This document shows positions 8,108-48,228 of a stretch of 64,000 nt of DNA, one piece after another. Each line of letters begins with the position of its first letter. Positions within the stretch are counted from its first letter, which is position 1. The notes under the pieces are model-generated. The model worked only from the letters and a program-made list of their open reading frames with translations. It had not been told where the DNA came from and ran no database searches. Both the position numbers and the translations under genes were made by a program. Source of the DNA: Patescibacteria group bacterium (GTDB lineage: Bacteria > Patescibacteriota > Minisyncoccia > Phycocordibacterales > UBA918); the NCBI GenBank assembly GCA_019750255.1, contig JAIEOU010000009.1, positions 5,497-69,496 on the forward strand, written 5' to 3'.

Positions 8108-8139
8108 TTCCCTACTCCAAAGAATGGGACTTCGTAGTC

Positions 8140-8409: not shown

Positions 8410-8414
8410 TGAGA

Positions 8415-8663: not shown

Positions 8664-8841
8664 ATATTTAAAGTGTACACTTAAGTGTACACTTTTGTCA
8701 AGTATTTATTGAACAGTAGTTTCGAACCGAATCCAGCCCCTTCTCGTGTCTACACAGACTGAGTGCACTTCACCCGCTCCTGCAGCAATTCTTTCAGGCA
8801 GTAACAATCATTGACATCATTAGTCACAGTTGCGTTAATTA

Positions 8842-10137
8842 ATGTATATGCACTTCGGTCTACGGACGTCTGAAGTTACTCCCCAGCGAGATATTCGCTC
8901 TGAGCCTGATTCACCGTCCTCACTTAAGACACTACTCTCTGCGCCTGGCCCACTCTCCATCATTACACTTGTAGAAACCTGTCTTCGAGAGGCACACCAC
9001 CAACACGCTTCCGACATTCATATCGAACCAAACGAACACGCCATCCGTGTTCGTTTTCGTATTGACGGCATGCTCTGCGACATCGTCACCCTTCCACGCA
9101 CTATACATTCGGAAATAATTTCTCGTATTAAAGTACTCTCCCATCTGCGGACCGACGAGCACCAAGCGGCACAGGACGGCCGCTTTCGCGCAACTTTTGC
9201 CACCACTGCGGTTGATATACGCGTTTCGATTGCCCCGACCCATCATGGGGAAAATGCCGTACTGAGACTACTTACTGAACACGCCACCCCGCGCACACTT
9301 AGCACACTCGGACTACATGAGAACGATCAAGCAAAAATTGAGCGGGCGGTCGCCTGCCAGAGCGGCATGATACTGGCAACCGGGCCAACCGGATCGGGAA
9401 AGACCTCAACGTTATATACCCTTCTCAAGTTACTCAATCACTCAGAAATCTCTATCGTCACAATTGAAGACCCTATTGAGTACGCAGTAGCTGGGGTTAC
9501 CCAAATGCAGATCAACCCGAGGTCTAACCTCACTTTCGCCAATGGGCTGCGTACCGTCTTGCGCCAGGACCCCAACGTTATTATGGTTGGTGAAATTCGT
9601 GATGCCGAAACCGCTAACATCGCTATTAATACGGCTCTCACCGGACACCTCCTCCTCTCCACCCTCCATACGAATGACGCTGCCACCACACTACCTCGAC
9701 TGCTCGATATGGGGGTAGATGCCTATCTGGTAGCGTCAACAATAAACATTGCCATCGGCCAACGCCTTGTGAGAAAAATCTGCCTACACTGCCGCACCAA
9801 GCACACGCCCACTGAAGCCGAGACACGCCACCTTAAATTGTCCTCACACACAACAACTGAGAAGTACGAAAACGTACCAAACAAATTTTTTCACGGCGCT
9901 GGCTGCCCTGCCTGCAACCACTCGGGCTATGCCGGGCGAATTGGCATATACGAAGTCCTCGTCGTGTCACCTACCATTCGCGAAGCAATCTTACAACGAG
10001 CTTCAGCTGCGACCATACATACCATCGCTCAAAGTGAAGGCCTTACCTCAATGTTTGAAGATGGCTTACGAAAAGCCGCGAAGGGTGACACAACGATAGC
10101 GGAAGTCTTGCGCGTGGTTGGGACACCAATTTCCTAA
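8842..10137 (+). CDS. pilB: type IV pilus/T2SS assembly ATPase, GspE/PilB family, short form lacking the N1 domain
   Basis: Walker A GPTGSGKTST, Asp box VGEIRD, His box ALTGHLLLSTLHTN and tetracysteine motif CLHC...CPAC. True start codon uncertain. Confidence 0.85.
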   Translation: MYMHFGLRTSEVTPQRDIRSEPDSPSSLKTLLSAPGPLSIITLVETCLREAHHQHASDIHIEPNEHAIRVRFRIDGMLCDIVTLPRTIHSEIISRIKVLSHLRTDEHQAAQDGRFRATFATTAVDIRVSIAPTHHGENAVLRLLTEHATPRTLSTLGLHENDQAKIERAVACQSGMILATGPTGSGKTSTLYTLLKLLNHSEISIVTIEDPIEYAVAGVTQMQINPRSNLTFANGLRTVLRQDPNVIMVGEIRDAETANIAINTALTGHLLLSTLHTNDAATTLPRLLDMGVDAYLVASTINIAIGQRLVRKICLHCRTKHTPTEAETRHLKLSSHTTTEKYENVPNKFFHGAGCPACNHSGYAGRIGIYEVLVVSPTIREAILQRASAATIHTIAQSEGLTSMFEDGLRKAAKGDTTIAEVLRVVGTPIS

Positions 10138-10145
10138 AGCCCTAC

Positions 10146-11327
10146 ATGAAATCTCTTTTCATAATGATATGGAACTTTGTCCGGCCCCATGACCAGCCTC
10201 GGCCGGCGCCAGGAAATACCCCACCGCCCGGACCACCACCCACCGTTACTTCAGCACCAAGTTCCATACTTTTTGTTCGCTTCACCACCAAAGACCGGGT
10301 ACTCTTTGCCCAGCGCTTATCTTTTCTCCTGCGAGCGAATGTAAGTTTAGTTGAAAGTCTCACGCTCATTCATAATCAAACCAAATCACAGCGTCGACAA
10401 CATCTCTACGCTACCGTCATCTCAGATATTCAAGCTGGACACACGCTTTCAAACAGCCTCCGTAAGTACCAATCGTTATTTGGCGAGTTTACCATCAACA
10501 TAATCAACGTTGGTGAGCAGGTCGGTGCACTCTCAGAAAATCTCGCCTATCTGGCCGATGCGCTCGCTAAAAAACACGCACTGGGGCGCAAAGTACGCAG
10601 CGCCCTCATTTATCCTCTATTCATTTCAGTCACCACGCTCGGGGTAACGGGATTTCTCGTGATGTATCTATTCCCAAAAATCATGCCAATTTTTGTTTCA
10701 CTTTCGATTGATCTACCACCTACCACCCGAGCTCTCCTCGCACTTAGTGAGTTTTTACGCGCACACGGTGGTGCGACAGTTGTACTCGGATTATGTATCT
10801 GTGTAACTTTTCTTGTGCTACGCACCAAGATTACCTCTTTGCGATTTGCTACCGACCACCTCATACTGACCACTCCGGTCGCCGGCCCCATTGTCCGTTT
10901 GTATAATTGTGCGAACTTTTGTCGGACGCTCGCACTTTGTCTTCACTCTGGTATCAGTCTTTCTGAAGCCCTTACCATTACCGCACAGACGACTCCTAAC
11001 CTCGTCTTCAAACGGGCATACGGGGCGTTCGCGGAGTCTGTGGCACGTGGTGAAAAAATCTCTAGGGCGATGTCGTCGTATACTTCACTCTTTCCCGAAC
11101 TGCTTCCACAACTACTGCTAATTGGAGAAACAACCGGTACTCTATCTAAAACCCTAACGTATGTCACGGAACTGTACGATACAGAGGTTGATGAAGTAAC
11201 AAAGAATCTCTCAAGCACCATTGAACCGGTTCTCCTTCTCACCATGGGAGTGTTTATTGGGTTGATTGCGGTTTCCGTAATCGCACCAATCTACGAGGTT
11301 ACTCAGCACCTTAACCACTCTTACTAA
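10146..11327 (+). CDS. pilC: type IV pilus platform protein, GspF/PilC family
   Basis: 393-aa polytopic protein with two GspF repeats (KDRVLFAQRLSFLLRANVSLVESL...). Pro-rich N-terminus, so the start is uncertain. Confidence 0.8.
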   Translation: MKSLFIMIWNFVRPHDQPRPAPGNTPPPGPPPTVTSAPSSILFVRFTTKDRVLFAQRLSFLLRANVSLVESLTLIHNQTKSQRRQHLYATVISDIQAGHTLSNSLRKYQSLFGEFTINIINVGEQVGALSENLAYLADALAKKHALGRKVRSALIYPLFISVTTLGVTGFLVMYLFPKIMPIFVSLSIDLPPTTRALLALSEFLRAHGGATVVLGLCICVTFLVLRTKITSLRFATDHLILTTPVAGPIVRLYNCANFCRTLALCLHSGISLSEALTITAQTTPNLVFKRAYGAFAESVARGEKISRAMSSYTSLFPELLPQLLLIGETTGTLSKTLTYVTELYDTEVDEVTKNLSSTIEPVLLLTMGVFIGLIAVSVIAPIYEVTQHLNHSY

Positions 11328-11341
11328 TTCCCCAAGCAATC

Positions 11342-11794
11342 ATGGCCACTACTAGCGGATTTACTCTCATTGAACTGCTCATCGTCATGAGCCTGCTTGC
11401 GGTGATTGCAGCGTTTAGTGCCCCTTTAAGCTTAACGAGTTTGTCACACTCTACCCTGCTTCAAGAGCGTGATGTGTTAGTTTCTCTGGTCCTCATGAAC
11501 GCAAGATCTGCTGCACTAGTGAATAGAGACCGCTCGGCTCAGGGTGTTTTTATAGATCAAACAAATAGACAGTACGTGCTTTTTAATGGCAGTACTTACA
11601 CGCAAGGAGCGCCGAGTAACCGCCTCATACCCTTTATTAGCCAATCGGTTGCGGTCAGTAACAGTGGTGGCGATACCATTATTTTTGCCCCTCACACCGG
11701 AACCATTATCAAGGGTGCCGGTACCATCAGCGTCGGGAGCGGTATTGCTACTCATACTGTTACCACAAACGACGTCGGGATGATTGACTGGTAA
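11342..11794 (+). CDS. type IV pilin-like protein (class III signal peptide)
   Basis: MATTSG|FTLIELLIVMSLLAVIAAF: canonical G-F-T-L-I-E prepilin cleavage and methylation motif. Confidence 0.8.
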   Translation: MATTSGFTLIELLIVMSLLAVIAAFSAPLSLTSLSHSTLLQERDVLVSLVLMNARSAALVNRDRSAQGVFIDQTNRQYVLFNGSTYTQGAPSNRLIPFISQSVAVSNSGGDTIIFAPHTGTIIKGAGTISVGSGIATHTVTTNDVGMIDW

Positions 11795-11797
11795 CGT

Positions 11798-13357
11798 ATG
11801 CATACGAACCCTACCTACAGCGAAGTTTCACCCTCGACGCACGCTGCCGGCTTTTCTACCATTGAAATACTTTTATCTTTTACCGTCGGCACACTGTTTC
11901 TCACCGCTGCCCTCATGCTGGTAGTGAGTGGACCTGGGCTAAATACCCGGTATTCACTAGACAGCAGTAACACCCTTGTGCTCGATGCGGCGCTTGATAC
12001 TCTTGGACTCTCTCTACTCACCCAAAGCCTTACCTCTACCACCGCTGCCCTACAAACTCAGTGGCACCGATCGATTTCTGGTTCAATTCGAATCGACCAA
12101 GGCTATGCAAAAAACCCACCATACATAACTGACATATCACCATGCCTTAAGGTTGTCACTAATGAAATAAGTTGGCTCCTGGGTGGTGGGCGTGTCCGTA
12201 ACAGCAGCCTCAGTGGAGTAGTGAGTAACGAACAGATTACTGGGGCTCTTGGAGGCGACTGCGATAGTGTACCGACGAGCGCAGACTGGTTTGCCCCACA
12301 GGTGCTTAGTCGGCACTCAATCACGTCCGGCACTCCGGTAGCACTCGACGTTCTAGGCGGGGCGGTCTACCTAAGTGACGCTGCCGGCATGTTACACATA
12401 ATTAACTTACAAGGTAATGCTATTAATGAGAACGGTGATTTTATTACTCCCCCGTTTGCAGCTGGTGCTACTTTGTTTGATGTTGATGTGGCAGACCACG
12501 TGGACCCCACAACCGGGGACCGTCACCGGTACGCATACACCGTACGGAACAGCACCTCAGACCAGTTGCAAGTAATTGACGTAGACAATCACACCGCACC
12601 CACGAGCACACCAGGAATGATAGTTACGTTTGGTGGCGCTAATCCTCCTCGCGGCAGCTTTCCCCAGGGATGGAGGCTCACCTACTATGACCGCATGGTC
12701 TACGCGCTCTCGCGTGAGACCGCCGGCTTTGAGTTTCATATTTTCGACGTCGGCGACCCTACTCGTCCCCGCGGGGTCGGACCCGGTTTCGAGGTAAACG
12801 GTACCGCAAACGACATCGCAGTTACTGATGTTTTTTTACCAACCACAACACAGCGAATAGCTATCTTGGGAACCGAACGTTCGGCACACGAAATTATGGT
12901 ACTGAACGTATCAAACCCACTCACACCGACGCTCATCACGAGCCTCGACCTACCCACGACGTTTGATGTGCGCTCCCTCTACCTTATTGGTAATCGTCTC
13001 TACGTCGGCCGCAATCGTACAACCGGCGGACCTGAATTGCTTGTATTTGAAATGACCTACAGCTCGACCTTACCCCTACAGTTAACTCTCACGCAACTTG
13101 GTACGGGAGTCGAAATTGGCGCCGATGTCACGAGCATCAAAGTAAGTGGGGTACAGGCATTTATTACCACCGCCAACGCAAATGACGCCTTCCAAATTTT
13201 TACTATAGAAAAGCCGACAGAAAACATAACCAGGATTGATACAGCCCCACTGCGACTCAGCGGCACTTTTCCGGCCGGGCTCGATTATTCCTCCCCATAC
13301 GTCTTTGTAGTAAGTAATGCCCTTCAGTCACTGCAGGTTATTCAGAGCTCACCATAA
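11798..13357 (+). CDS. large pilin-like protein fused to an LVIVD-repeat beta-propeller (candidate pilus tip/adhesin)
   Basis: N-terminus AAG|FSTIEILLSFTVGTLFL is a prepilin motif. C-terminal 350 aa carry repeated hydrophobic-x-(V/I)-x-(D/N)-(V/I)-(S/D/G)-(N/D)-P-x-x-P units (EIMVLNVSNPLTP, HIFDVGDPTRP, QVIDVDNHTAP, FQIFTIEKPTE), typical of LVIVD repeats. Confidence 0.6.
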   Translation: MHTNPTYSEVSPSTHAAGFSTIEILLSFTVGTLFLTAALMLVVSGPGLNTRYSLDSSNTLVLDAALDTLGLSLLTQSLTSTTAALQTQWHRSISGSIRIDQGYAKNPPYITDISPCLKVVTNEISWLLGGGRVRNSSLSGVVSNEQITGALGGDCDSVPTSADWFAPQVLSRHSITSGTPVALDVLGGAVYLSDAAGMLHIINLQGNAINENGDFITPPFAAGATLFDVDVADHVDPTTGDRHRYAYTVRNSTSDQLQVIDVDNHTAPTSTPGMIVTFGGANPPRGSFPQGWRLTYYDRMVYALSRETAGFEFHIFDVGDPTRPRGVGPGFEVNGTANDIAVTDVFLPTTTQRIAILGTERSAHEIMVLNVSNPLTPTLITSLDLPTTFDVRSLYLIGNRLYVGRNRTTGGPELLVFEMTYSSTLPLQLTLTQLGTGVEIGADVTSIKVSGVQAFITTANANDAFQIFTIEKPTENITRIDTAPLRLSGTFPAGLDYSSPYVFVVSNALQSLQVIQSSP

Positions 13358-13362
13358 TACGT

Positions 13363-13899
13363 ATGCCACTTCATCACGATCATCAACAAGATGGAGTTAC
13401 TCTCCTTGAAGCCATCATTTACGTCGCTCTCTTTAGTGCTCTCACTACCGGTGTTTTGATGAGTGTCTATCCCCTCTTTACCGGAGCCGCTCGTCATACC
13501 GAACTTATTGCAACCCATAGTGACATAGTGTTTATTTTGAAAAAAATTGAACAAACACTTAGCGACAGTATCACCACACCATCCTCCACAATTCTTGTAC
13601 CGCCTTCCGGCCAAAGCGCCGAAACACTCGCTATACAAAGCACGACTGGCAGCATATTTACTTTTACTATTGATACAGCCCCGTCTGGCTGCACACCGCC
13701 GCGTCTCTGCGCCACCCTTACCCTCAAGACCAATAGCGGCCCGGCATTATCGCTTAATAGCAGGAGGATTCACATTAGTGATTTTACGGTGACTCACACT
13801 GAGCAAGGACTCGATTGCTCGAGTGTTCGCTGTCTCGACATATCATTTGCAGCTAACGGACAAGCGGTCGGACCACTCCGTTACTATCTCCGTTTCTAG
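13363..13899 (+). CDS. minor pilin-like protein
   Basis: QQDG|VTLLEAIIYVALFSAL: prepilin N-terminus with Glu at +5. Confidence 0.65.
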   Translation: MPLHHDHQQDGVTLLEAIIYVALFSALTTGVLMSVYPLFTGAARHTELIATHSDIVFILKKIEQTLSDSITTPSSTILVPPSGQSAETLAIQSTTGSIFTFTIDTAPSGCTPPRLCATLTLKTNSGPALSLNSRRIHISDFTVTHTEQGLDCSSVRCLDISFAANGQAVGPLRYYLRF

Positions 13900-13901
13900 T
13901 T

Positions 13902-14303
13902 ATGAAAAATCATTTCGCACCCCGAGGATTCATAGCCCTTCTAACCATGATAATAATTTCATCGGTGTTGCTCGTCACTACTCTGTCTCTAGCACAATTT
14001 GGCCTTACCCATCGCTATTTCATACTTGATCTTGAACATAAGTCCGTGAGTACTCATTTAGCTGAGGCGTGTGTCCACATCGCTCGCGTCCTCATCATGA
14101 ATAGCCAGAGTGATAGCCTGACCTTTCCCCACCCCTTTCCCGTTCACCAAGAGTTCTGCACGATCCATTTAATAACCCGAGCGGGCACGACCAGCGCCGT
14201 AGAAACAGAGGGAACGCATGAAGGTATATCGACACACTACTCCGTCACCGTCGACAACAACAACGGTAGCTTTCTCTCCTGGGAGGAGATAATTAACCCC
14301 TAG
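13902..14303 (+). CDS. pilin-like hydrophobic-N-terminus protein (no Glu+5)
   Basis: APRG|FIALLTMIIISSVLLV is pilin-like but lacks the +5 Glu. Operon context only. Confidence 0.4.
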   Translation: MKNHFAPRGFIALLTMIIISSVLLVTTLSLAQFGLTHRYFILDLEHKSVSTHLAEACVHIARVLIMNSQSDSLTFPHPFPVHQEFCTIHLITRAGTTSAVETEGTHEGISTHYSVTVDNNNGSFLSWEEIINP

Positions 14304-14410
14304 CTATAAACAGAACTATTAATCCAAAAAATTTTAAGCACCCCCTACCGTATATAATTTAGATAACGGAAAGATGCTTCACGCAACTATACTTATCTAT
14401 AATTTATTGT

Positions 14411-14899
14411 ATGAAAAATCACACACAGAGGTCCACCCAAGGATTTACGTTGATTGAGATTCTTATCGTTATTGCAATCTTGGCTGTGCTGGCCGCCATC
14501 GTACTGGTCGCCATTAATCCAGCCCGCCAATTTCGTCAGGCCAATAATGCCCAACGCGTGAGTAACGTTAATGCTCTATTAAATGCCGTTAGCCAATACA
14601 CCGTCGACGAGAAGGGCGCCATTCCGTCCGAAATTGAAGCTGATGCTGACGAGATTAATGGCACGAGTGGTAGCGACCACGCTGATCTCTGCGCACTACT
14701 AGTACCAAAGTATCTCCCCGCCCTACCGGCCGACCCAAGCAAGAGTGACCAAAGTATTACCGAAGACAAGTGCGGTAGCGCATACTCAACCGGCTATGAA
14801 ATTAAAGCTGAGAACGGTCGCGTCGTCGTCTCGGCACCGCTCACCGAGGATGAGGATACCGGGGCGATAGCGAGTGACATCATTAGCGTAACGCGCTAA
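14411..14899 (+). CDS. pilA: type IVa major pilin candidate
   Basis: STQG|FTLIEILIVIAILAVLAAIVLVAI: textbook T4a pilin N-terminus; 162 aa. Last gene before the terminator. Confidence 0.8.
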   Translation: MKNHTQRSTQGFTLIEILIVIAILAVLAAIVLVAINPARQFRQANNAQRVSNVNALLNAVSQYTVDEKGAIPSEIEADADEINGTSGSDHADLCALLVPKYLPALPADPSKSDQSITEDKCGSAYSTGYEIKAENGRVVVSAPLTEDEDTGAIASDIISVTR

Positions 14900-14967
14900 T
14901 AGGACCAACCGCGTAACTCGCCCCACGGCTGAGACGCCGGTCTCTACATCCGCATCGTCAGCTAACA

Positions 14968-14998
14968 CGAAAAAACACCCATTTGGGTGTTTTTTCGT
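14968..14998. terminator. bidirectional intrinsic terminator
   Basis: aaaaaACACCCatttGGGTGTtttttt. Confidence 0.75.
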
Positions 14999-15011
14999 AA
15001 CCAGAAGACAG

Positions 15012-15323
15012 CTACACAAAAAAGGAATATAGCACCTCTGCTTTTGAAACCCGTTCAAGACACTCCTCCTTCATCTGCTTGTGCTTTTGATTAACCTGCC
15101 TATCCGTGTTGGCTGGTAGACACTCACCCACCATTTCACCCAACACATAGGTAGTGCCATCAATAATGAAACTAAACACCGCCTCATGCACCAACCCCTC
15201 TTCACGTAAAGATGCTTCAGCTTCAGTACGAAATTGTGTTGTGAGTTCGACACACCACTCTCTCCAAGCTGCCTCTTTACCTGATTTCACCCTGAATACA
15301 TTGGCCACGGTTTTACTACTCAT
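15012..15323 (-). CDS. hypothetical protein (DUF6176-like pattern, weak)
   Basis: 103-aa ORF flanked by terminators on both sides. VFRVKSGKEAAWREW...EG...E.VF is loosely DUF6176-like. Confidence 0.4.
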   Translation of the reverse strand: MSSKTVANVFRVKSGKEAAWREWCVELTTQFRTEAEASLREEGLVHEAVFSFIIDGTTYVLGEMVGECLPANTDRQVNQKHKQMKEECLERVSKAEVLYSFFV

Positions 15324-15375
15324 ATATCTTTACCACCCATCATATGTCTTACCAAATAAAACTCAATGTGCATGA

Positions 15376-15412
15376 TAACAAAACCGCCACCCTTTCGGGT
15401 GGCGGTTTGTTG
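15376..15412 (-). terminator. intrinsic terminator closing the rpsS-rplE unit
   Basis: On the minus strand: CAAACCGCCACCCgaaaGGGTGGCGGTTTTGTT. Lies downstream of rplE. Confidence 0.7.
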
Positions 15413-15482
15413 TTGCTGCTTCTTCAAGCCTGATTCAAAATTTTCAGATACCAGGAGCCAAGGATGAGCAGAAATAAGGAAC

Positions 15483-15551
15483 ACGTAGTGTGACTATATT
15501 TTGCTGAAACAAAAGCTTGGTTGTATTCGACTTAATTAAGAGAATAGAACC
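15483..15551 (+). repeat. structured repeat element, copy C (right flank of the island)
   Basis: acgtagtgtgacTATATTTTgc matches the copy A flank at 20 of 22 positions. Hairpin GGTTGTATTCGACttaattaagaGAATAGAACC has conserved TTCGAC and GAGAAT with a new covarying base stem. Confidence 0.55.
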
Positions 15552-15645
15552 GTAGCTTTTGAGCGAGGACAGGAGGCGTACATATTGTACGATAACTGTC
15601 CGAGCGAAGTATGCGACAAAGTATCTGGAGATTTTGGGCAGGCGA

Positions 15646-16182
15646 CTACGCGGCCTGGAGAGGTACTCCGATGTGCCGCAAGAAAGCCTCAGCTTCCTTC
15701 TTCCCTTTCGCAGTAGTCACAATCGTGATACCGAGTGGGAACACATCCTTGATTTCTTCTTCACCACACTCCGGGAAAATAGTGTGCTCTTTGATACCGA
15801 TTGAGTAGTTACCCATAGCATCGATAGAGGAACGCTTAAGACCCTGGAAATCGCGCGTCTGTGGGAGCGCAAGGTGAACGAGCTTATCGAGGAAGTGGAC
15901 CATACGAGCGCCGCGCAAGGTAATCTGGTAGCCGATGATATCACCCTTACGTGACTTAAACGACGCCACTGACTGCTTGGCTGGACGTGGTGCCGCCTTC
16001 TGACCAGTGATAAGGGCGAGACGATCGCGGATGAGCGCGAGCTTTGCCTTATCCTGAACGCGGCCGGTACCGACCGAGATAACCACCTTCTCTACCTTTG
16101 GTGCCTGCATCACATTTTTGTAACCAAACTCGTCTTTGAGGGACGCGTAGGCTGACTTGATGCGTGTATTAACTGATTCCAT
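15646..16182 (-). CDS. rplE: 50S ribosomal protein L5
   Basis: 178 aa; NVMQAPKVEKVVISVG and ITLRGARMVHFLDKL are L5 motifs. Confidence 0.9.
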   Translation of the reverse strand: MESVNTRIKSAYASLKDEFGYKNVMQAPKVEKVVISVGTGRVQDKAKLALIRDRLALITGQKAAPRPAKQSVASFKSRKGDIIGYQITLRGARMVHFLDKLVHLALPQTRDFQGLKRSSIDAMGNYSIGIKEHTIFPECGEEEIKDVFPLGITIVTTAKGKKEAEAFLRHIGVPLQAA

Positions 16183-16191
16183 ATATAGTGG

Positions 16192-16503
16192 TTATACCTT
16201 TTTACCGGTAGGGCGAGCCACGCGCACCTTGGTGCGCTTGTCTCCCTCACCTTCAATCTGGTAACCGGTTCGAACTGCCTTGTCGCCCACCATCAGGCCT
16301 ACGTTAGAAATGTGGATCGGCATGCTTTTTTCGATAATCTGTCCCTGGCTGCGCGCGCGGCGGCTCTTCTGGTGACGCTTGACCACATTGAGACCCTCAA
16401 TCACAACCGCGTCGGATTTTACGAGAACAGTCAGTACAGTCCCCGTCTTGCCTTTGTCCTTGCCGGTGCGCACGATGACGGTGTCGCCTTTACGAATTTT
16501 CAT
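16192..16503 (-). CDS. rplX: 50S ribosomal protein L24
   Basis: MKIRKGDTVIVRTGKDKGKTGTV is the KOW motif. Start trimmed to the internal ATG (the ORF-track N-terminus overlaps rplN). Confidence 0.85.
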   Translation of the reverse strand: MKIRKGDTVIVRTGKDKGKTGTVLTVLVKSDAVVIEGLNVVKRHQKSRRARSQGQIIEKSMPIHISNVGLMVGDKAVRTGYQIEGEGDKRTKVRVARPTGKKV

Positions 16504-22874: not shown

Positions 22875-23480
22875 TTAGATGCTACGCACCTCGACTAAGG
22901 TTCCTGCTCGACCTGGAACGGCACCGGAAACGAGGAGGAGATTTTCCGCCGCATTTACCTGGAGAACCTTGAGGTTCTTTACCGTGATAGTATCGCCACC
23001 CATACGGCCGGCCATACGCATACCCTTGGCAACGCGACCGCCAGCGCGGCCACCACCACCAATTGATCCTGGTTCACGTTCTGAGTGCTTCTGACCATGA
23101 GTGCGCCGCCCACCGGCAAAGCCGTGACGCTTTACTACACCCTGGAAACCCTTACCCTTTGAAATAGCCGTCACCATAATGGTGTCGCCAGGGACAAAGA
23201 CTGAAACATCAAACTGCGCACCCTTCTCAAGATCACCTGAGATTTCCATTTCACGAACGTGCTTAAACGCGCCGCCAAAGGCAATCCGCTGAGCCTTTGC
23301 TACACGCTCTTCTTTCTGTACACCACTGGCTACCTGCGCGCTGTGGTATCCATCTTTTTCAACCGTCTTTATCTGAGTGACTACCTGTGGTGCGACACGG
23401 AGAACCGTACCTGCCCACGCGCGGCCAGTCTCATCGAAGACTTGGGTCATGCGCTCTTTGGTTCCGAGAACGAATTTCAT
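22875..23480 (-). CDS. rplC: 50S ribosomal protein L3
   Basis: 201 aa; MKFVLGTKERMTQVFDETG...GKGFQGVVKRHGFAGG. Confidence 0.9.
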   Translation of the reverse strand: MKFVLGTKERMTQVFDETGRAWAGTVLRVAPQVVTQIKTVEKDGYHSAQVASGVQKEERVAKAQRIAFGGAFKHVREMEISGDLEKGAQFDVSVFVPGDTIMVTAISKGKGFQGVVKRHGFAGGRRTHGQKHSEREPGSIGGGGRAGGRVAKGMRMAGRMGGDTITVKNLKVLQVNAAENLLLVSGAVPGRAGTLVEVRSI

Positions 23481-23757
23481 AGTTGCTTATAAGTGATAAA
23501 TGCTCGCCATTTATAACAAAACCACGACCAGGGACAGTGCCCCACGGACGTGGTATTGCAGCTGCCCATTGGTTCTCCCGGGGTAATTAGCCCTAGGGGG
23601 ACGTAGGTCTTATATGAATGTCCCCGGTACTATACGTGGGTTTGCTAAAAATGCAAGGCTAAGGAAGGCTCCACTTTTTGCCTTAAGCTCTATAAAAGGT
23701 GAGGACCGCTGTCATTACTGACAGCGGTCCGGGATTTTGTGCCCCGAGAGGCCTAAT

Positions 23758-23934
23758 TCAGTTCTTATTCGGCTTGGCTGCAAGCCTGAACAGGCTCCGC
23801 GCTCGGCGAATCACCGCCGAGTCGTCTGAGCCTGTCATTTGTTTACTCTGCTTCTCGAGAAACTGGACTGCCTCGTCAGAGGAAATTTTGAATGGTGGGC
23901 GCGCAGTCGGTTCAGGAGTCGGCTTTTTTGCCAT
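23758..23934 (-). CDS. hypothetical small basic protein
   Basis: 58-aa ORF from the internal ATG (MAKKPTPEP...). Hairpin-flanked; weak. Confidence 0.3.
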   Translation of the reverse strand: MAKKPTPEPTARPPFKISSDEAVQFLEKQSKQMTGSDDSAVIRRARSLFRLAAKPNKN

Positions 23935-23976
23935 TGGAGTGTCCTTCGGGTTGCTTCCGCGCTGGAGAATACTCCA

Positions 23977-24020
23977 ACAAAAAACAGCCGTCAACGACGG
24001 CTGTTTCTCCTTTCGTTTTA
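23977..24020 (-). terminator. intrinsic terminator after the giant surface protein gene
   Basis: On the minus strand: AAACAGCCGTcgttGACGGCTGTTTTTTGTTGG, 10 nt after the stop. Confidence 0.75.
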
Positions 24021-24026
24021 GCGGGA

Positions 24027-27000
24027 TTATTGCTGGGTGCCGAGCAGCAGGCGTGTCTGCGGTCCCACGATGCCAAGGGCATCAAGGGCATGGGCAGCCT
24101 GGAATGATCGTACCGCAGCTTCGGTAACCGGTCCGAAATAACCGGTAGCCTCCCCACTAAAGTAGCCAAGACGCTTGAGGGCTGCTTGCAGGACACGGAC
24201 CTGTTCGCCTGAAGAGCGAAGTGAGAGACGGTCAGATATCGTGAAGCGTATGTCGTTGATTCCTAATACAGATCCACTCGCAGGAACATTCGGAAAACGA
24301 GCCGGTGTAAAATCAGTGAGCACCTTGTTAACGAACGTTAACGTCTCACCATTCTTGAATGTCAGTACTACGTTCGAGCCGACCTGAGTCAACGCTGCCC
24401 TTAGCTCTGTCCAGTTATTAAAGGCTCCACTTGAAAGGATTATTTCGTCCGGACGAGTGCTTCCTGTAGCAAAACCGATAATAGTGTCTGATCCATTACC
24501 TGATGAAACTGTAATTTCTTCAGCCTGGTTTCTCGCAACAATCGTATCGTTTCCACCCATACCATTAATCCTGAACCTTGTATCAGATGTATTTTGTGAG
24601 CCAACCAAAATATTTGCACTCGCATTGCCTTCGATGGTTAAGTTAGACGTCGCGTCTCCGCCATAGATAATAGTATCGATGGCGCTTGGAAGCGTGTACA
24701 CTCCCCAGCCGTGACGGGTAATTACGGCAGTGTTAGCGCTTACATCCACTCCCTCTATGACTTCAGAACCTCCGACATAGAACACATCGTTACCGCCACC
24801 ACTAACGAACGTAGCTCCTCCACCAAATTCGACAGCTTCAAACACATCGTTCGCGGTAGTACCAACAAGACGTGGCACCCAGGCACCGCGCTCCGCAGCA
24901 ATCGTGACGGTTGGCAGCGTGAGGGGATTGAGCAGGTTCTGACTTGTCCCTGCCAAGGTAATGGTGTAGCTGGTGGGAGTTACAATAGTTGGTTCTACAC
25001 TCGTTCGCGGGTCGCTTACTTGTTTCCAAGCACCATTACTATATTCATACCAGACGCTTGTGTTGTTGAGCGTATAGAGCTTTCCGCCATTAAGCACATG
25101 AAGTTCAACACCTCCACCTCCGACAGCCGATGCTCCGTTAAGAAGAACCAGATTACCGCCGGGTACTGTCTGGGTGCTAAACGACCACGTTCCTGCGGCT
25201 GTAGTTAGACTACCACCACTGGACACTGAAATGACTGCTCCATCTGGACTCAATCCAGGAGTAGTAGGTGGCGGGAGTGAGGTTTCTGGGTTTATCGTTC
25301 GACTCCACGTCGCAGCAGCTACATCCCGGAGATACCAGACACCCTTACTGTTGCGTGCGTACAATTTTCCACCATTGAGTACCACCATCCGATTCCCGGT
25401 CAACAGAGCGGATTTACCATTCAGGTTAATCCTCCAACCACCACTTATTCTACTAGTACCGAACGACCACGTTCCTTCAGGAGTTATCAGGGTAGAACGT
25501 GAACCTCCACCGACCGACGTACCATCAGAACTGATTGATACGGTTGAGGTTGGTGCTGTGCTGGCTAACTTGAAGTAACACGCCTTAACAACGCCTGGCA
25601 ACGGATCACCAAACACTGCATTGGTGCAGGCGGTACTGGCTGTTATTGAGCGGTAATTGAAGGCTCCGTTAGCACCATAAGCAACACTTGCGGTACCGGC
25701 AAACGAACAGGTACCTCCCTCCTCTGCACACTTGGTATACCCCGTAGGACCGCCAGCATCTGCTTGTGCTACTGGTGCAGATACAGCTACTACAACAGAC
25801 TTCTGTGCGGAGCCGCCAGTGCCAGTGCAGGTGAGTGTATAGGTGGTTGTAGTTTCTGGAGAAAGGCTTTGTGAACCAGCAGTCGCTCCAGCGGTAAAGC
25901 CGGTACCGGTACACGCAGTGGCGTTCGCGCTTGACCAAGTCAGCGTTGTAGTTTGACCCCTAACAATACTAGAGGAAGTGAGACTCAGCGTTACGGTCGG
26001 TACCAAGGTTGGAATTGGGGATGGAGTAGGTGTGGATGCACTACTTTTTGTCATGTACATATCAACACTGTAACCATCAAGCCCAGAATCATAATCGACA
26101 CTCCACCAATTGTACCCACCAGCACTGATCGGACCAGAGCGAAGCGTTCCAAGGGCTCCAAAAGGCTGCGTGCCGAGGATGGTACCGTTAGCGGTCGCAC
26201 GGACATTCGTACCAGTGGTTAGACTAATTCGGTCACCAGTAATGAAACCTAGTGCTGGCAGAGCGGGGAGTGGAGCTGGTTCTGGAATTGGAGTTGTCGG
26301 TACAGAAATCATTCCTGAGCGGCGTGGAGTAACTCTAAACTGAAAATCTTTTTGATACGACTCAACATCAGTAAATTTTGGTTTGAGGGCCAACATTTTG
26401 TCGTAGGTCTGCAAGGCTTCACTAGACCCCGTGACATTATAGACGTTTGCGAGAGACATAAGACCACTTGGACCGTAGGTGCCTTCCCCACCATCGTACT
26501 CCACGTTTAAGTTCGAGATTCCTAACCACGTAGTAACCGGCTTACCATTAGCGTACATGGCAAAACCGTAGTTAAAGCCCACTAATGGATTGTTCATTTT
26601 ATTGTAGCGGTTGATAACGTAGTTAGACATTATCCCGACCACCTGTTTTGCTTTGGCACTACCACGATTTGCAGACGCAGCCAAAGAACTCAACAGATAA
26701 TCTTGTTGCCACGGCTTAACGGCCGGAGGAAAATCACCGTCTACACCCGTGAAGTAGCCACGCGCCTCACCTTGTGCAGGACCCTCGGCGGCGGCTCGAC
26801 TAATTAAGTGGTCAAGATTATTGTTTAGAATTTTTTGCCAATAATTTTTAGCTGTCGTTCCATCAGGATTAGCCCACGCTGCCTCATCAATTTGTCGAAG
26901 ATCCCAGCCAGCACCTCTAACCTGGTTCATATCATGAACAACCAAACCAAGTCCATCTTGCCGAGGCGCATTCCACCCAGCCATCACTGTCCAAGATGCT

Positions 27001-28253
27001 TGGGCATTTATTTGATCAAGATGATAGCGGCTACCAGTAAACAGGTACGGAATGAAACTAAGCGCAGGCTGATGGGCATTTTCAGGTGACCACACATCAT
27101 CTTTCGTGAATTGAGTTAGAGTTGGGTAGCCTCGACCATCAGCCCAGAGGGTCGGATATTTATCAAGAGAAAGATAATCCTTAGTGGTTGGGTCGTAGTA
27201 GTGCCACGGCACACTCCCTGCGGCATCGGCTTGAGCGAGCGCTGACTTGGCCGCAGTATCACTTTGAGTCAGCAACCACGCACCATTTGTGCCGGTAATT
27301 GGACCAATGTCCTGGCGTCCACCAGTCCCAGGCATGTAGGTAGCGATACCTCCAATTCCTAGTGGCTCATAGGTATTACTAGGCATGTGGTTACTATCAA
27401 CCCCAAATGATGTTTCGAAGTTGAGAATTGCACCTGTAGACATAAGGTACGGGATATCACGCTGCACATTCACCCGCGTCTCTTGCCCGGTACTGTAAAT
27501 CATCTTGTGCCAGGTTTGATACTGGTGGTGGGTGAGACTGCCACTGTTGTACACCGTCGAACCATTCTGGGCGATAGTGGCCGTGTAGTTTAAAGTGTCT
27601 CCACTACTCGTCATTGCATGATCATTGTTGAAGTGCACATCAGTCGTGTACGTACCATCAGCAAACTTCGAGACGTCGAATACAAGGCGCATTGATGAGA
27701 CAACCGGTACCTCAAACCGACCTTCAGTTACCACTGGCCCTTGGCGCCAGTAGGTAACCCGTCCCGCAGTGAGCTCAGTCGCAAGCAGCTTGGCGGCATC
27801 AAACGTATAGGTATTACTAGAAGTTTTCAGAGTCACGACCACAGAGTAGTTCGGCATGGTAGCGAGCGAGAGTGGAGTACCACTTTGGGAAGCAGGATTC
27901 AGCATGGCGTTGCTGCTTGAGTTGGCCGCAATACTCGGTGCCAGCATGGTGACGACACCAAACCGGACCGAGCCGTCGGGATACTTGGTCTTAACGTCGA
28001 TTTGGGTAGGGACATTATTTCCTCGTACTTCCGCGACTACTCCTGAATTCCCGGGAAGATCCCCGGCCACGAAGGCCTGCCCCATCTGCACTGGCCCGGC
28101 TGGGATACTGCTTGAGGTAGGGTTTTGGAGGATAAAACCGACAAGCTCGCCAGTAGCAGGCTGCGGGATGGTTGGTAGGTTAATTATTTGTGCGGCAGCG
28201 AGCGCTGGCGCCATGAACAGCAGACAGACAGCTCCAATAAGTCTTGAAATCAT
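24027..28253 (-). CDS. giant secreted multidomain surface protein with C-terminal peptidoglycan-binding domain, RTX-like Ca-binding repeats, Ig-like domain and central alpha-helical (putative glycan-active) module
   Basis: Start set at the ATG preceding signal peptide MISRLIGAVCLLFMAPALAAAQ; the ORF-track start is an upstream GTG. C-terminus GEQVRVLQAALKRLGYFSGEATGYFGPVTEAAVRSFQ...GIVGPQT is PG_binding_1. GGGNDVFYVGG, GMGGNDTIV and SGNGSDTII are RTX-like. Duplicated ~80-aa GTWSF...LNGGKLY domain. Thr-rich Ig-like linker. Confidence 0.8.
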   Translation of the reverse strand: MISRLIGAVCLLFMAPALAAAQIINLPTIPQPATGELVGFILQNPTSSSIPAGPVQMGQAFVAGDLPGNSGVVAEVRGNNVPTQIDVKTKYPDGSVRFGVVTMLAPSIAANSSSNAMLNPASQSGTPLSLATMPNYSVVVTLKTSSNTYTFDAAKLLATELTAGRVTYWRQGPVVTEGRFEVPVVSSMRLVFDVSKFADGTYTTDVHFNNDHAMTSSGDTLNYTATIAQNGSTVYNSGSLTHHQYQTWHKMIYSTGQETRVNVQRDIPYLMSTGAILNFETSFGVDSNHMPSNTYEPLGIGGIATYMPGTGGRQDIGPITGTNGAWLLTQSDTAAKSALAQADAAGSVPWHYYDPTTKDYLSLDKYPTLWADGRGYPTLTQFTKDDVWSPENAHQPALSFIPYLFTGSRYHLDQINAQASWTVMAGWNAPRQDGLGLVVHDMNQVRGAGWDLRQIDEAAWANPDGTTAKNYWQKILNNNLDHLISRAAAEGPAQGEARGYFTGVDGDFPPAVKPWQQDYLLSSLAASANRGSAKAKQVVGIMSNYVINRYNKMNNPLVGFNYGFAMYANGKPVTTWLGISNLNVEYDGGEGTYGPSGLMSLANVYNVTGSSEALQTYDKMLALKPKFTDVESYQKDFQFRVTPRRSGMISVPTTPIPEPAPLPALPALGFITGDRISLTTGTNVRATANGTILGTQPFGALGTLRSGPISAGGYNWWSVDYDSGLDGYSVDMYMTKSSASTPTPSPIPTLVPTVTLSLTSSSIVRGQTTTLTWSSANATACTGTGFTAGATAGSQSLSPETTTTYTLTCTGTGGSAQKSVVVAVSAPVAQADAGGPTGYTKCAEEGGTCSFAGTASVAYGANGAFNYRSITASTACTNAVFGDPLPGVVKACYFKLASTAPTSTVSISSDGTSVGGGSRSTLITPEGTWSFGTSRISGGWRINLNGKSALLTGNRMVVLNGGKLYARNSKGVWYLRDVAAATWSRTINPETSLPPPTTPGLSPDGAVISVSSGGSLTTAAGTWSFSTQTVPGGNLVLLNGASAVGGGGVELHVLNGGKLYTLNNTSVWYEYSNGAWKQVSDPRTSVEPTIVTPTSYTITLAGTSQNLLNPLTLPTVTIAAERGAWVPRLVGTTANDVFEAVEFGGGATFVSGGGNDVFYVGGSEVIEGVDVSANTAVITRHGWGVYTLPSAIDTIIYGGDATSNLTIEGNASANILVGSQNTSDTRFRINGMGGNDTIVARNQAEEITVSSGNGSDTIIGFATGSTRPDEIILSSGAFNNWTELRAALTQVGSNVVLTFKNGETLTFVNKVLTDFTPARFPNVPASGSVLGINDIRFTISDRLSLRSSGEQVRVLQAALKRLGYFSGEATGYFGPVTEAAVRSFQAAHALDALGIVGPQTRLLLGTQQ

Positions 28254-28667
28254 AATACTTTTTAATTCGCGATAATGAATTAAGTATACTCCATAAAAAA
28301 AACGCCATGTTTGTTTCCCACAATTAGTAGCATTCACCACTACGACACATACAAATTATTTGGTAAAGATTATACAAAATTGATTGACCCCCCGGTAAGG
28401 GGTACGGTCGGAGTAAGAGCAGCGGCTAGCGCTCCGATATTTTTCTGTAAGAACATTTCCTTTCTCATACTAAAGAATATCGAGACCATGTGTACCGCGC
28501 ACCATGGCTTGGAGTGGTTACTCACTCGATGGAGATGCTGGGCGCAGTCAGGCAACAAAATTTTTGTGGCTCAGCTCGCATTAAAGCAGCCAGGATTACC
28601 ACCGTCTTGACTTCAAATAAAGACCTCCCCAATCGGGCTCGTGTGGCACCATCGGCTACTCGTCCAT

Positions 28668-28698
28668 GCAAAAAAAACGCCGGGATAAGCCCGGCGCT
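28668..28698 (-). terminator. intrinsic terminator
   Basis: On the minus strand: CGCCGGGcttatCCCGGCGTTTTTTTT, downstream of the 28723-29358 gene. Confidence 0.7.
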
Positions 28699-28722
28699 GA
28701 GGCGCACCTGTTTGTATGTTTA

Positions 28723-29358
28723 TCATTCAGTCGAAAGGAGTTCGTTCCAGTAGGCGGTTACCGCCACTACAGAAAGCCCCAACATATCGGCTACCATATC
28801 GGCTGATACTCCCGCCATCTTGGTGCGCATGGCAAAGTACCCAGCAACCTGCCGGCGCTCCCCGAGAGTTAAAGTAGTCTTGTTCGACTTTTGTTCAGTG
28901 GATTTCTGAGACGGCGGCAGAGGCGACGGTCCAGCGGTTTCCGTCTTCGGCCTGGTTTTTTTCTGACGGTTACGCTTCCAGTCGTCCCGCTGAAGCTCAA
29001 GCTTCACTACGTCGTTTCGCGCCACAAACGGTTGGGCGGCACCCACCCGCCAAGGCTCGTCACGCTGCACTTGAGGCATCGGGCGCCTTGGTGGGACGTC
29101 CACTTTTCGAACATCTCGCGCATGGTCAGTACAAAGAGTTGATTCTCTTGAGCTCAGATTAACCGCGTAACAGTGGCGCGGAGACTCTTTTACACACAGG
29201 GCACAGGCTCGGTTTACTGAGGGACACCGGAATTCATGGCAGCTCAGATTAATGCTTGGCCTTACCGTCAGCTCCTTACATTCACCCAGAGTCATCGAGC
29301 GACGATTCGGGAAAATTGGGCAGAAAATAAAGCTATCTGGGGATCCTTGACTACTCAT
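28723..29358 (-). CDS. hypothetical Cys-rich protein with C-terminal HTH-like segment
   Basis: 211 aa (the start may be an internal M). CHEFRCPSVNRACALC...C..C cluster. C-terminal GVSADMVADMLGLSVVAVTAYW looks like a helix-turn-helix. Has its own terminator. Confidence 0.45.
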   Translation of the reverse strand: MSSQGSPDSFIFCPIFPNRRSMTLGECKELTVRPSINLSCHEFRCPSVNRACALCVKESPRHCYAVNLSSRESTLCTDHARDVRKVDVPPRRPMPQVQRDEPWRVGAAQPFVARNDVVKLELQRDDWKRNRQKKTRPKTETAGPSPLPPSQKSTEQKSNKTTLTLGERRQVAGYFAMRTKMAGVSADMVADMLGLSVVAVTAYWNELLSTE

Positions 29359-29464
29359 CGCGGCTCTCCTTTACAGATTGTGAAGAACGTATTGCATCAC
29401 CGTACTGTATCGGACATTAGATGTAAAGGTAGCAAAACGCCGCCCCATGAGAGGGCGGCGCTCT

Positions 29465-29710
29465 TTACCACCAGGAATTCCAACGAGCGACTACGTCAAA
29501 ATATGATGGTCGCTCGTGAAAGGTGGTAGGCTCGATGTGGGGGTGAGGCTCTTGCTGCTGACGGAGAAGTATTAGTCCATCGCGGATGACCTGGGCTTCA
29601 GTTTGTCCGCGCACGCGCGCTGTCTGCTTAATCCAGCGTGCCAACTGTTGATCAAGTGTCAGCTCCATGCCTTCGCGTGGCTTATGGCAGAGTTCAAAAT
29701 ACGGATCCAT
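29465..29710 (-). CDS. ribbon-helix-helix (CopG/ParD-like) small protein
   Basis: 81 aa; LTLDQQLARWIKQTARVRGQTEAQVIRDGLILL fits the RHH beta-alpha-alpha pattern. Confidence 0.4.
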   Translation of the reverse strand: MDPYFELCHKPREGMELTLDQQLARWIKQTARVRGQTEAQVIRDGLILLRQQQEPHPHIEPTTFHERPSYFDVVARWNSWW

Positions 29711-30164
29711 AATCGGATTCCTTTCTTCTCGGATGTACTATTCCTGAATACCCTAGCACAGGAATGTGGTATTAAAAAACACAACAAATTTTTTAAAGCC
29801 TCGCACGCACTCCACCCGAACCAGCCAAGTACTTCGCCTAAAAATTTAGGCTCCACTCATATATATGAGTGGAGCCTTAGGTTAAGGAGCGTTAAGGGAA
29901 CAGGTACTCACGCACATGAAGTGAGGCAATTAAAAACAGTGATGACATTTTTTTATTTGCGAACAAACGTAGACAGCAACAACCAAAAAGAACCCCGGCG
30001 AAAGCCGGTAGTTCTTTGTAGTTCGCTGTCGGAGCTAATTCCTCTTTGAGGAACAATGCATACCGAGCGATACGAGCGAATTTAATGCACGTGATAGCCT
30101 CTATTAATTTCCGAGTAAGCGAAGGGAGTAAGCTTAAAACGTAGTTAACGTATTTCTAAATAGC

Positions 30165-30192
30165 AAAAACCCCACCGAGGTGGAGTTTTTAC
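30165..30192. terminator. hairpin with U-tail in ORF-free region
   Basis: aaaaaCCCCACCgagGTGGAGttttt. Confidence 0.45.
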
Positions 30193-30247
30193 TTTGCTGT
30201 AACTTCGTAAAGAAGTTTTGAGCTTACTACCAAACGAAGTGAGAGAA

Positions 30248-30283
30248 GCAAAAAAACCTCTGCCAAGCAGAGGTTTTTTTTGC
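30248..30283. terminator. bidirectional intrinsic terminator immediately downstream of rpsJ
   Basis: aaaaaaACCTCTGCcaaGCAGAGGTttttttt. Confidence 0.8.
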
Positions 30284-30326
30284 TTCCGAGCAAGTGCTGG
30301 GAGGAATAATTTGCCTAAGCAAATTA

Positions 30327-30698
30327 TTACATCATCTTCACGTCCACATTCACGCCTGATGGGAGTGAGAGGTTCGTGAGGGCTTCAATGATCTTTGGTC
30401 CAGGATTGAGAATATCGATTACTCGCTTGTGCATACGCATCTCGAACTGTTCTCGCGCGTCTTTATGCACGAAGGTCGAGCGATTAACCGTGTACTTCTT
30501 AATCTCGGTCGGGAGTGGAATGGGTCCCACTGCCTTCACGTCGAAGCGTGCAGCGGTGTCTATGATTTGCTTTACTGACGCATCGAGAATCTTGTGCTCG
30601 TAGGCACGGACTCGGATCCGCAGCTTGCTGATTTCACCAGGCACTGCCTTAGGCTCCTTTACGGCCTTGGCTTCCTTTTTTGAGGTATCAGTGGCCAT
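30327..30698 (-). CDS. rpsJ: 30S ribosomal protein S10 (N-terminal extension)
   Basis: LRIRVRAYEHKILDASVKQIIDTA...RSTFVHKDAREQFEMRMHKRVIDI. Confidence 0.9.
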   Translation of the reverse strand: MATDTSKKEAKAVKEPKAVPGEISKLRIRVRAYEHKILDASVKQIIDTAARFDVKAVGPIPLPTEIKKYTVNRSTFVHKDAREQFEMRMHKRVIDILNPGPKIIEALTNLSLPSGVNVDVKMM

Positions 30699-48180: not shown

Positions 48181-48228
48181 AAAAGCAGCCGTGTAACTCA
48201 CCTTACACGGCTGCTTTTCTTTTTTCTA
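48181..48228. terminator. bidirectional intrinsic terminator
   Basis: aaaAGCAGCCGTGTAActcaccTTACACGGCTGCTtttcttttttc. Confidence 0.8.

Follow-up and report, generated by a model that had tools for sequence, protein, structure and literature searches.

The exo-rhamnogalacturonan lyase of Penicillium chrysogenum (PcRGLX; PDB 5XQ3, 5XQG and 5XQJ) belongs to polysaccharide lyase (PL) family 26, PL26, which also includes YetA of Bacillus subtilis; it is a three-domain enzyme of about 880 residues that cuts Rha-GalA linkages by beta-elimination and whose context is pectin utilisation. Toroids of the (alpha/alpha)6 type are found in the glycoside hydrolase (GH) families GH88/GH105 and GH76, in the AGE epimerases and in the beta-1,2-glucanases. 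Sinorhizobium RTX glycanases of the ExsH/EglC type have a GH16 catalytic domain, and ExoK and ExsH serve as secreted glycanases for a cell's own or its neighbour's exopolysaccharide (EPS). Wall-bound enzymes of monoderms, such as SleB, endolysins and Zn DD-peptidase, combine peptidoglycan-hydrolase catalytic domains with PG_binding_1 or SH3b anchors, by which they are retained on the wall non-covalently. Here we describe a gene that bears comparison with each of these systems and that lies between the ribosomal protein genes rplC and rpsJ in a 64,000-nucleotide stretch of DNA (hereafter the window) from a Patescibacteria group bacterium of the Paceibacteria with a tiny genome (contig JAIEOU010000009.1). 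It encodes a complete, secreted protein of 1408 residues with a large N-terminal module related to PL26 and a C-terminal peptidoglycan-binding domain.

We consider it reasonably probable that this protein is a Sec-exported, peptidoglycan-tethered polysaccharide depolymerase whose catalytic module comes from an undescribed PL26-like family. On the most economical reading it would be a wall-bound modular enzyme that acts on glycans, its candidate catalytic part coming from a large family that is uncharacterised. An earlier annotation made from the DNA letters (the sequence-only reading) had proposed a secreted, peptidoglycan-binding giant protein with a polysaccharide-lyase-like toroid, a general picture that is supported by the PG_binding_1 match and by AlphaFold2 (AF2) models compared with known structures by Foldseek.

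A complete gene for a secreted 1408-residue protein

The open reading frame (ORF) list places the gene at 24027-28340 with a GTG start; initiation at the ATG at 28253 gives the 1408-residue product that the sequence-only reading had described. An NCBI entry on a 79-kb contig, named 'peptidoglycan-binding protein [Patescibacteria group bacterium]', is 100% identical to this product from end to end. The N-terminus of the product, MISRLIGAVCLLFMAPALAAA, combines a positively charged n-region with a hydrophobic core, and its cleavage site is of the AxA type; on this reading by eye it is a predicted Sec-type signal peptide, as had been proposed. Directly past the stop codon we found a terminator-like hairpin with a U-run (Table 1), which bears out the earlier claim of a terminator of the gene's own; none of 200 shuffled sequences folded equally well. 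The accompanying promoter claim stood only in part: the TATACT element is present upstream, but no sigma-70-like site was detected there in a consensus scan, in which promoter-like hits across the region were also below shuffle expectation.

The predicted fold of the N-terminal module resembles carbohydrate-active toroids

The AF2 model of residues 23-660 (pLDDT 92.9, pTM 0.94) opens with a beta-structured stretch of about 245 residues, after which comes an alpha/alpha toroid. The structure prediction that had been suggested as a check thus returned a folded module and not a disordered one. The large alpha-rich toroid anticipated by the sequence-only reading is present, although it had been placed centrally and is actually N-terminal, behind the beta-rich region.

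In a Foldseek search of the PDB, all meaningful neighbours of the module were carbohydrate-active toroids. The top neighbour was the PL26 exo-rhamnogalacturonan lyase (E 4.5e-5 to 3.5e-4, probability ~1.0, TM 0.25-0.36), with which the module shares its domain order of one or more beta domains followed by a toroid. GH88/GH105, AGE epimerases, GH76 and beta-1,2-glucanases came next, with alignments of the toroid over 200-450 columns (TMt 0.25-0.44, probability 0.8-0.98). These likenesses have clear bounds: at about 620 residues the module is shorter than the PL26 enzyme and has no sequence similarity to it beyond the first ~60-80 residues, while the other toroids are only 10-16% identical and their Pfam models do not match the window protein.

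In the window protein the module has no Pfam, NCBIfam or PDB sequence match, with no Pfam family over residues 23-660 even at E<=10, and a family profile compared with PDB sequences at E<=10 returned RTX and PG-binding domains only and nothing over the module. The first PL26 domain, PF19501 (PcRGLX_1st), also failed to match the window protein even at E<=10, but it matched 15 of the 38 aligned relatives together with several stand-alone members and the phage protein gp39 (see below), several of them above the gathering score of 22.1 bits. In the relatives, the first ~80 residues of the beta-rich part match a PcRGLX-like RIFT barrel, and a beta-sandwich follows. Because of the PF19501 matches and the shared architecture, and with no other Pfam family detected, we regard the family as related to PL26 and not, by sequence, as a member of it.

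The family is large. Approximately residues 23-646 are conserved in more than 100 proteins at 25-56% identity, and a search with a profile through 1.84 billion representative proteins returned 5617 matches at E<=1e-3, 2612 of them at E<=1e-30. It comprises at least 2,600 clusters at 50% identity and includes stand-alone proteins of 600-700 residues.

A set of polar and aromatic positions is conserved within this family. Q84, D93 and S95 are invariant in the beta-rich part, and the toroid conserves M307-G311-R313-D315, H351, H394-P396, Y403, R431, R446, W450, R453 and N479. Q84, D93, R313, D315, H351, H394, Y403, R431, R446, W450, R453 and N479 are kept in members at 24-27% identity, including phage gp39. 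The conserved Arg, Asp, His, Tyr and Trp residues read as an active-site-like pattern, and a His/Tyr/Arg/Asn set is typical of the uronate-acting toroid-type lyases (PL5/PL8/PL15/PL17). Rich in Arg, His, Tyr and Trp and with no conserved Glu, the set does not obviously appear to reproduce the acid/base pairs of six-hairpin enzymes.

This conservation also bears on whether the protein might be a non-catalytic surface adhesin, a lectin-like structural protein whose toroid merely binds glycan and which mediates attachment to a host. CPR (candidate phyla radiation) bacteria depend on attachment, the long modular architecture with Ig-like, SH3-like and beta-roll domains resembles that of bacterial adhesins, and catalysis by the N-terminal module is predicted only. 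We nevertheless hold an adhesin to be unlikely, since R313, D315, H351, H394, Y403, R446, W450 and R453 are invariant at 24-27% identity, even in stand-alone proteins of 600-700 residues and in a phage protein; a set of this kind is met more typically at an active site than on a binding surface, and every fold neighbour is an enzyme.

The sequence-only reading had likened the helical region to heparinase II/III. A heparinase II/III or other Pfam PL assignment for the helical module was rejected, as no model matched: Hepar_II_III gave no Pfam match over residues 23-660 at E<=10, and no heparinase appeared among the PDB fold matches.

Four proteobacterial relatives of the module adjoin exopolysaccharide genes

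Relatives of the module with a named source are mostly from Alphaproteobacteria (Acidiphilium, Neoroseomonas, Roseomonas, Roseococcus, Sediminicoccus, Rhodospirillales and Skermanella), with others from Beta- and Gammaproteobacteria, and the additional domains that they carry are RTX, Calx-beta, CBM60, Laminin_G_3 and Beta_helix. Among the matches with a named source, about 13 were from Proteobacteria and two from CPR bacteria. An enrichment of homologues in episymbiotic CPR, which the sequence-only reading had listed as a point to check, is therefore rejected.

In all four proteobacterial loci examined, exopolysaccharide genes adjoin the module gene. In two Acidiphilium genomes the neighbours are exosortase EpsH, WsaF, glycosyltransferases and a polysaccharide deacetylase. 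Neoroseomonas soli has Wzy_C/DUF5935 together with glycosyltransferases and a flippase, and on a metagenomic contig Wzy_C/DUF5935 is accompanied by an acyltransferase and a methyltransferase. This setting differs from the pectin-utilisation context of PL26, and it points to an exopolysaccharide target in place of the cell-wall-remodelling role that had been suggested for the window protein.

The module also occurs in phages. EBPR siphovirus 1 gp39 (JF412302.1; 779 residues, annotated as hypothetical) carries it at 27% identity (E 3e-29) with a PcRGLX_1st match, and a phage protein in BFVD matches the toroid (E 6e-15, TMt 0.68). The gene after gp39, gp40, is annotated as a glycosyl hydrolase, and the two (8149-12579 of that locus) are possibly a phage EPS-depolymerase pair.

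The closest CPR relatives of the window protein end, like it, in PG_binding_1. One metagenome contig from JGI carries two tandem paralogues of the CPR-type protein, each of 1357 residues and running from the N-terminal module to PG_binding_1, at 8001-16408. As a separate observation, a protein of 773-775 residues with no Pfam family adjoins Wzy_C/DUF5935 and the module gene in two unrelated proteobacterial EPS loci (L004, 5783-8104; L006, 3487-5814).

The C-terminal half carries a peptidoglycan-binding domain and accessory modules

A Pfam scan of the 1408-residue protein recognised PG_binding_1 as its sole family (Table 1); the HMM (hidden Markov model) scan that the sequence-only reading had proposed as a check thus upheld its assignment of this domain. 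The same segment, residues 1348-1401, was matched by peptidoglycan-binding domains in the PDB, namely those of Zn DD-peptidase, SleB, endolysins and an L,D-transpeptidase.

These matches raise the possibility of a lytic or remodelling enzyme directed at peptidoglycan, in which PG_binding_1 and the SH3-like domain would guide the N-terminal module to cut a wall glycan or polymer of a host or of the cell itself. Wall hydrolases are typically accompanied by PG_binding_1 and SH3b-type domains, and all close CPR relatives retain PG_binding_1. PG_binding_1 is, however, also a common non-covalent surface anchor in monoderm-like cells, and most members of the module family lack a peptidoglycan-binding domain, carrying RTX, CBM60 or Calx-beta instead and residing in EPS loci. 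Moreover, the module has no similarity to known muramidase, lytic transglycosylase, amidase or peptidase families. The window protein would share with SleB, endolysins and Zn DD-peptidase their mode of wall retention, but it has none of their peptidoglycan-hydrolase domains. We judge a wall-lytic function improbable, and retain the reading of a polysaccharide depolymerase that is tethered to peptidoglycan.

Between the module and PG_binding_1, an AF2 model of residues 655-1408 built on a fragment alignment resolved several accessory domains. An SH3-like beta-barrel and a 56-residue domain with four cysteines were both absent from the domain list of the sequence-only reading. The SH3-like segment (residues 674-736) has no Pfam match in the window protein; CPR relatives contain segments homologous to it, and one such relative carries Pfam SH3_3 (42 bits), possibly in the aligned stretch. 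The Thr-rich Ig-like domain that had been predicted is seen in the model as a beta-sandwich, and homologous copies of this segment are repeated in many relatives. No Pfam model matches the four-cysteine domain. It recurs, often in tandem, on dozens of secreted enzymes, among them beta-helix proteins, S8 proteases, GH18 and GH43 enzymes and metalloproteases; it is a promiscuous accessory module and a candidate for an undescribed binding module.

The two copies of a domain of about 80 residues with a GTWSF..LNGGKLY signature, also described earlier, were recovered by BLASTP at 38% identity to each other (E 8e-16), with low AF2 confidence. A direct repeat in the DNA at 282-nt spacing is consistent with an internal duplication that gave rise to them. 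An HMM built from both copies found the domain beside the N-terminal module in seven other family members.

The sequence-only reading had further described GGxGxD RTX-like repeats. By fold this is upheld, as the AF2 model shows short strands every ~9-10 residues (pLDDT 70-96) and the top Foldseek matches are RTX lipases, serralysins and the CyaA RTX domain (probability 0.96-1.0); the motif itself is not, with no GGxGxD and only two xGxGxDxh motifs in the entire protein by motif scan, and with Pfam HemolysinCabind (PF00353) below threshold on the window protein (15.4 bits vs cutoff 23, E 0.019). Residues 1127-1320 match the N-terminal part of NCBIfam EglC (positions 29-208 of 459, E 1.6e-16), and the region is 39-43% identical to blocks of PF00353-carrying proteins. 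Given these matches and the RTX-like model on one side and the missing GGxGxD on the other, we call the region a degenerate RTX-type beta-roll.

The EglC match extends the comparison with the ExsH/EglC-type glycanases, as does the combination of RTX domains with EPS-gene neighbours in the proteobacterial module proteins. The catalytic parts are unrelated, a GH16 domain in the one case and a toroid in the other, and the window protein further differs in that it has a Sec signal at its N-terminus and an internal beta-roll that is degenerate and is followed by PG_binding_1. With this arrangement, type I secretion is not implied for the window protein: the RTX-style layout of a C-terminal secretion signal and no N-terminal one was not found, and type I secretion system genes were not looked for beyond the window.

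Proposed function and the evidence for and against it

From the domain map, fold, family size, conserved residues and genomic contexts established here, we infer catalysis, a substrate, a chemistry and the identity of the wall that is bound. The N-terminal module of 620 residues, with its RIFT-barrel-like domain, beta-sandwich and toroid, would be the working part. Its substrate may be an acidic or rhamnose-containing bacterial exopolysaccharide or capsule, cleaved more likely by beta-elimination through the conserved His, Tyr and Arg residues or, alternatively, by hydrolysis through the conserved Asp. PG_binding_1, and probably the SH3-like domain as well, would bind peptidoglycan non-covalently, and the Ig-like domain, the cysteine domain, the two GTWSF repeats and the degenerate calcium-type beta-roll would act as spacers or as extra glycan-binding units. 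With a non-covalent peptidoglycan anchor and such a stalk, the enzyme would be displayed at a cell surface, either that of the envelope-poor Paceibacteria cell or the wall of a partner cell, where it could open the polysaccharide layer of a host or neighbour or release sugars.

Several points weigh against this proposal. The N-terminal module family has no characterised member, its structural matches are weak overall (TM 0.25-0.44), and the module of the window protein itself has no Pfam match. In the relatives scanned, PcRGLX_1st is the sole Pfam family over the module, so that sequence reveals no more than the first PL26 domain. That the conserved residues, taken from the alignment, would line one pocket is an assumption, and a conserved Glu was not found among family members. 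For the association with EPS genes there are four loci, and two of these belong to Acidiphilium genomes that are close relatives; the CPR loci offer no functional context, the relatives lying among housekeeping genes and never in a ribosomal operon.

If the module is catalytic, it would represent a large new polysaccharide-cleaving family that Pfam, NCBIfam and the PDB do not cover and that spans EPS loci of Acetobacteraceae/Rhodospirillales, phages and CPR bacteria; it would offer a way into the question of how EPS is trimmed or breached, and a supply of enzymes that degrade biofilms. In the biology of CPR bacteria, a predicted enzyme tethered to peptidoglycan is a testable candidate for interaction with host surfaces. 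A more far-reaching proposal, which we put forward as speculative, is that the 620-residue module founds a new CAZy-level family of EPS lyases or hydrolases, with 2,600 or more clusters at 50% identity, that is type-I-secreted beside proteobacterial EPS loci, serves phages as a depolymerase, and was re-tooled by Paceibacteria, through the addition of a Sec signal and of peptidoglycan anchors, into a surface 'drill' through the capsule or EPS of the cells on which they live, and that the rpsJ-rplC junction in this lineage would be a dedicated hotspot for surface-variation and accessory cargo such as diversity-generating retroelements (DGRs), toxin-antitoxin genes and secreted enzymes.

Table 1. 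Features of the large gene, its product and the surrounding rpsJ-rplC segment. Coordinates are those of the window, in which all listed features are on the minus strand; aa, amino acids of the 1408-residue product; dG, folding free energy.
Feature	Coordinates	Strand	Evidence or remark
Large gene, complete, 1408-aa secreted multidomain product	24027..28253	(-)	ORF list; stop codon 24027-24029
Signal peptide, predicted, Sec-type, aa 1-21 (MISRLIGAVCLLFMAPALAAA, Q next)	28191..28253	(-)	Sequence reading
N-terminal module part 1, beta-rich, aa 23-267	27453..28187	(-)	AF2 strands E16-E243, pLDDT >90
N-terminal module part 2, alpha/alpha toroid, candidate catalytic domain, aa 268-646	26316..27452	(-)	AF2 helices, Foldseek, conservation
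SH3-like beta-barrel, aa 674-736	26046..26234	(-)	AF2 pLDDT ~96, all-beta
Ig-like beta-sandwich, Thr/Ser-rich, aa 753-825	25779..25997	(-)	AF2 pLDDT ~82
56-aa four-Cys domain, aa 839-894 (C842, C849, C876, C892)	25566..25751	(-)	AF2 pLDDT ~95, compact (aa 835-896 in the model)
GTWSF..LNGGKLY repeat 1, aa 913-992	25278..25517	(-)	BLASTP of the two copies
GTWSF..LNGGKLY repeat 2, aa 1007-1085	24999..25235	(-)	BLASTP of the two copies
Degenerate RTX-like beta-roll and C-terminal cap, aa 1124-1320	24294..24884	(-)	NCBIfam EglC, AF2 (aa 1124-1319 in the model), Foldseek
PG_binding_1 (PF01471), aa 1348-1401	24051..24212	(-)	Pfam E 3e-17, 63 bits vs cutoff 23; AF2 pLDDT ~90
Intrinsic-terminator-like hairpin and U-run, directly past the stop of the large gene	23976..24012	(-)	dG -21.9 kcal/mol, z -4.9
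rpsJ (S10), upstream boundary	30327..30698	(-)	Pfam Ribosomal_S10, 110 bits
Terminator-like hairpin after rpsJ	~30245-30286	(-)	dG -24.7, z -5.5
ORF81, orphan, 81 aa (NCBI MBY0310212.1, hypothetical protein)	29465..29710	(-)	Singleton cluster; own terminator
ORF211, orphan, 211 aa as listed (NCBI: 118 aa, K2Q16_03650)	28723..29358	(-)	Own hairpin terminator
ORF58, 58 aa, between the large gene and rplC, doubtful reality	23758..23934	(-)	Strong hairpin follows
rplC (L3), downstream boundary	22875..23480	(-)	Pfam Ribosomal_L3, 51 bits

The rpsJ-rplC junction is variable among the nearest relatives

The position of the large gene between rplC and rpsJ, noted in the sequence-only reading, was confirmed by Pfam matches to both boundary genes. 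The gap between them measures 6846 bp (23481-30326) and holds the large gene, ORFs of 211 and 81 residues (ORF211 and ORF81) and a doubtful ORF of 58 residues (ORF58). Beyond the gap, the upstream genes are tuf and fusA and the downstream ones rplD, rplW and rplB.

To survey this junction, the L3 sequence of the window was scanned against 185,579 species genomes, and the spacing at the nearest-relative loci (L007-L017) was compared with that at the other loci (L018-L086). The nearest L3 relatives were from Paceibacteria, Nomurabacteria and Kaiserbacteria, at 61-68% identity, with rpsJ-rplC distances of 3560, 4077, 1075, 1035, 912, ~9800 and >10,000 bp, as against 3-400 bp in most of the more distant CPR bacteria and other phyla sampled.

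The gaps of these relatives hold diverse genes. A Candidatus Nomurabacteria contig (JACKGI010000003.1; rpsJ 336-680, rplC 4754-5377) has a complete DGR at 1709-4518, with a Fib_succ_major target, bAvd, an RVT_1 reverse transcriptase, and variable and template repeats (2337-2511 and 3121-3295) that are 89% identical over 175 nt. One Paceibacteria genome has a secreted protein of 371 residues, and two Kaiserbacteria-like genomes have about 10 kb of cargo with secreted or TPR-like proteins. The gap of Patescibacteria UBA2135 contains, at 9311-9894, a gene for a ParE-family toxin (Pfam 32.7 bits); a small ORF upstream of it resembles a ribbon-helix-helix (RHH) antitoxin. None of the relatives' loci has homologues of the window's four inserted genes at the junction. 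Since the cargo in these gaps is unrelated, the insertion in the window is one case of a junction that varies across the lineage and is not specific to the large gene. The junction looks like a lineage-specific variable hotspot: in most bacteria rpsJ and rplC are direct neighbours, but in all of the nearest Paceibacteria relatives variable cargo keeps them apart, a small, clean observation on genome organisation in reduced genomes.

Small genes in the inserted segment

The sequence-only reading had associated the large gene with a Cys-rich helix-turn-helix (HTH) protein, ORF211, and an RHH protein, ORF81, and neither assignment found support. For ORF211, a homologue search of 5.8 billion proteins returned only itself, no Pfam, PHROG or PDB match was found, and the sole match when HTH and sigma-factor families were tested was an NCBIfam sigma factor at E 0.034, with 14 bits against a cutoff of 162. 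ORF81, a singleton, has no Pfam, NCBIfam or PHROG match, and its best PDB match, VapB26, is non-significant (E 0.12). ORF58 has no family match in Pfam, NCBIfam or PHROG, and its exact sequence is absent from the protein collection.

A stable hairpin with a U-run follows each of rpsJ, ORF81, ORF211 and the large gene (z -2.5 to -5.5). After ORF58 there is a stronger one (z -6.1), with a tail that is not U-rich. With the small ORFs orphan and each provided with its own terminator, nothing indicates that they form a functional module with the large gene.

A perfect 30-nt palindrome, AGGCTCCACTCATATATATGAGTGGAGCCT, lies at 29848-29877, about 140 nt upstream of ORF81, and is followed by AAATTTTT. 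It could be an operator or a terminator.

These features bear on whether the large gene and the two small ORFs, with their proposed HTH and RHH proteins, are the cargo of a mobile or defence-type island, a single regulated unit inserted into the S10 operon. The rpsJ-rplC interruption, the mobile-type cargo (DGR, ParE toxin) at the same junction in relatives and the palindrome upstream of ORF81 would fit such an island. We consider it very unlikely, because around the 6.8-kb segment we found no flanking direct repeats, tRNA, Rfam family, GC anomaly, or integrase- or transposase-like ORF, the small ORFs are orphans without family matches, each gene has a separate terminator, and relatives of the large gene in other CPR genomes lie elsewhere, with the small ORFs absent in three loci.

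Elsewhere in the window, type IV pilus/type II secretion genes, including two T2SSE ATPases and a T2SSF platform protein, occupy 8842-13357 and 60230-62017. The window also encodes ComEC (48203-49810) and RecJ (50890-52719), which together with the pilus genes make up the usual CPR set for DNA uptake and pili.

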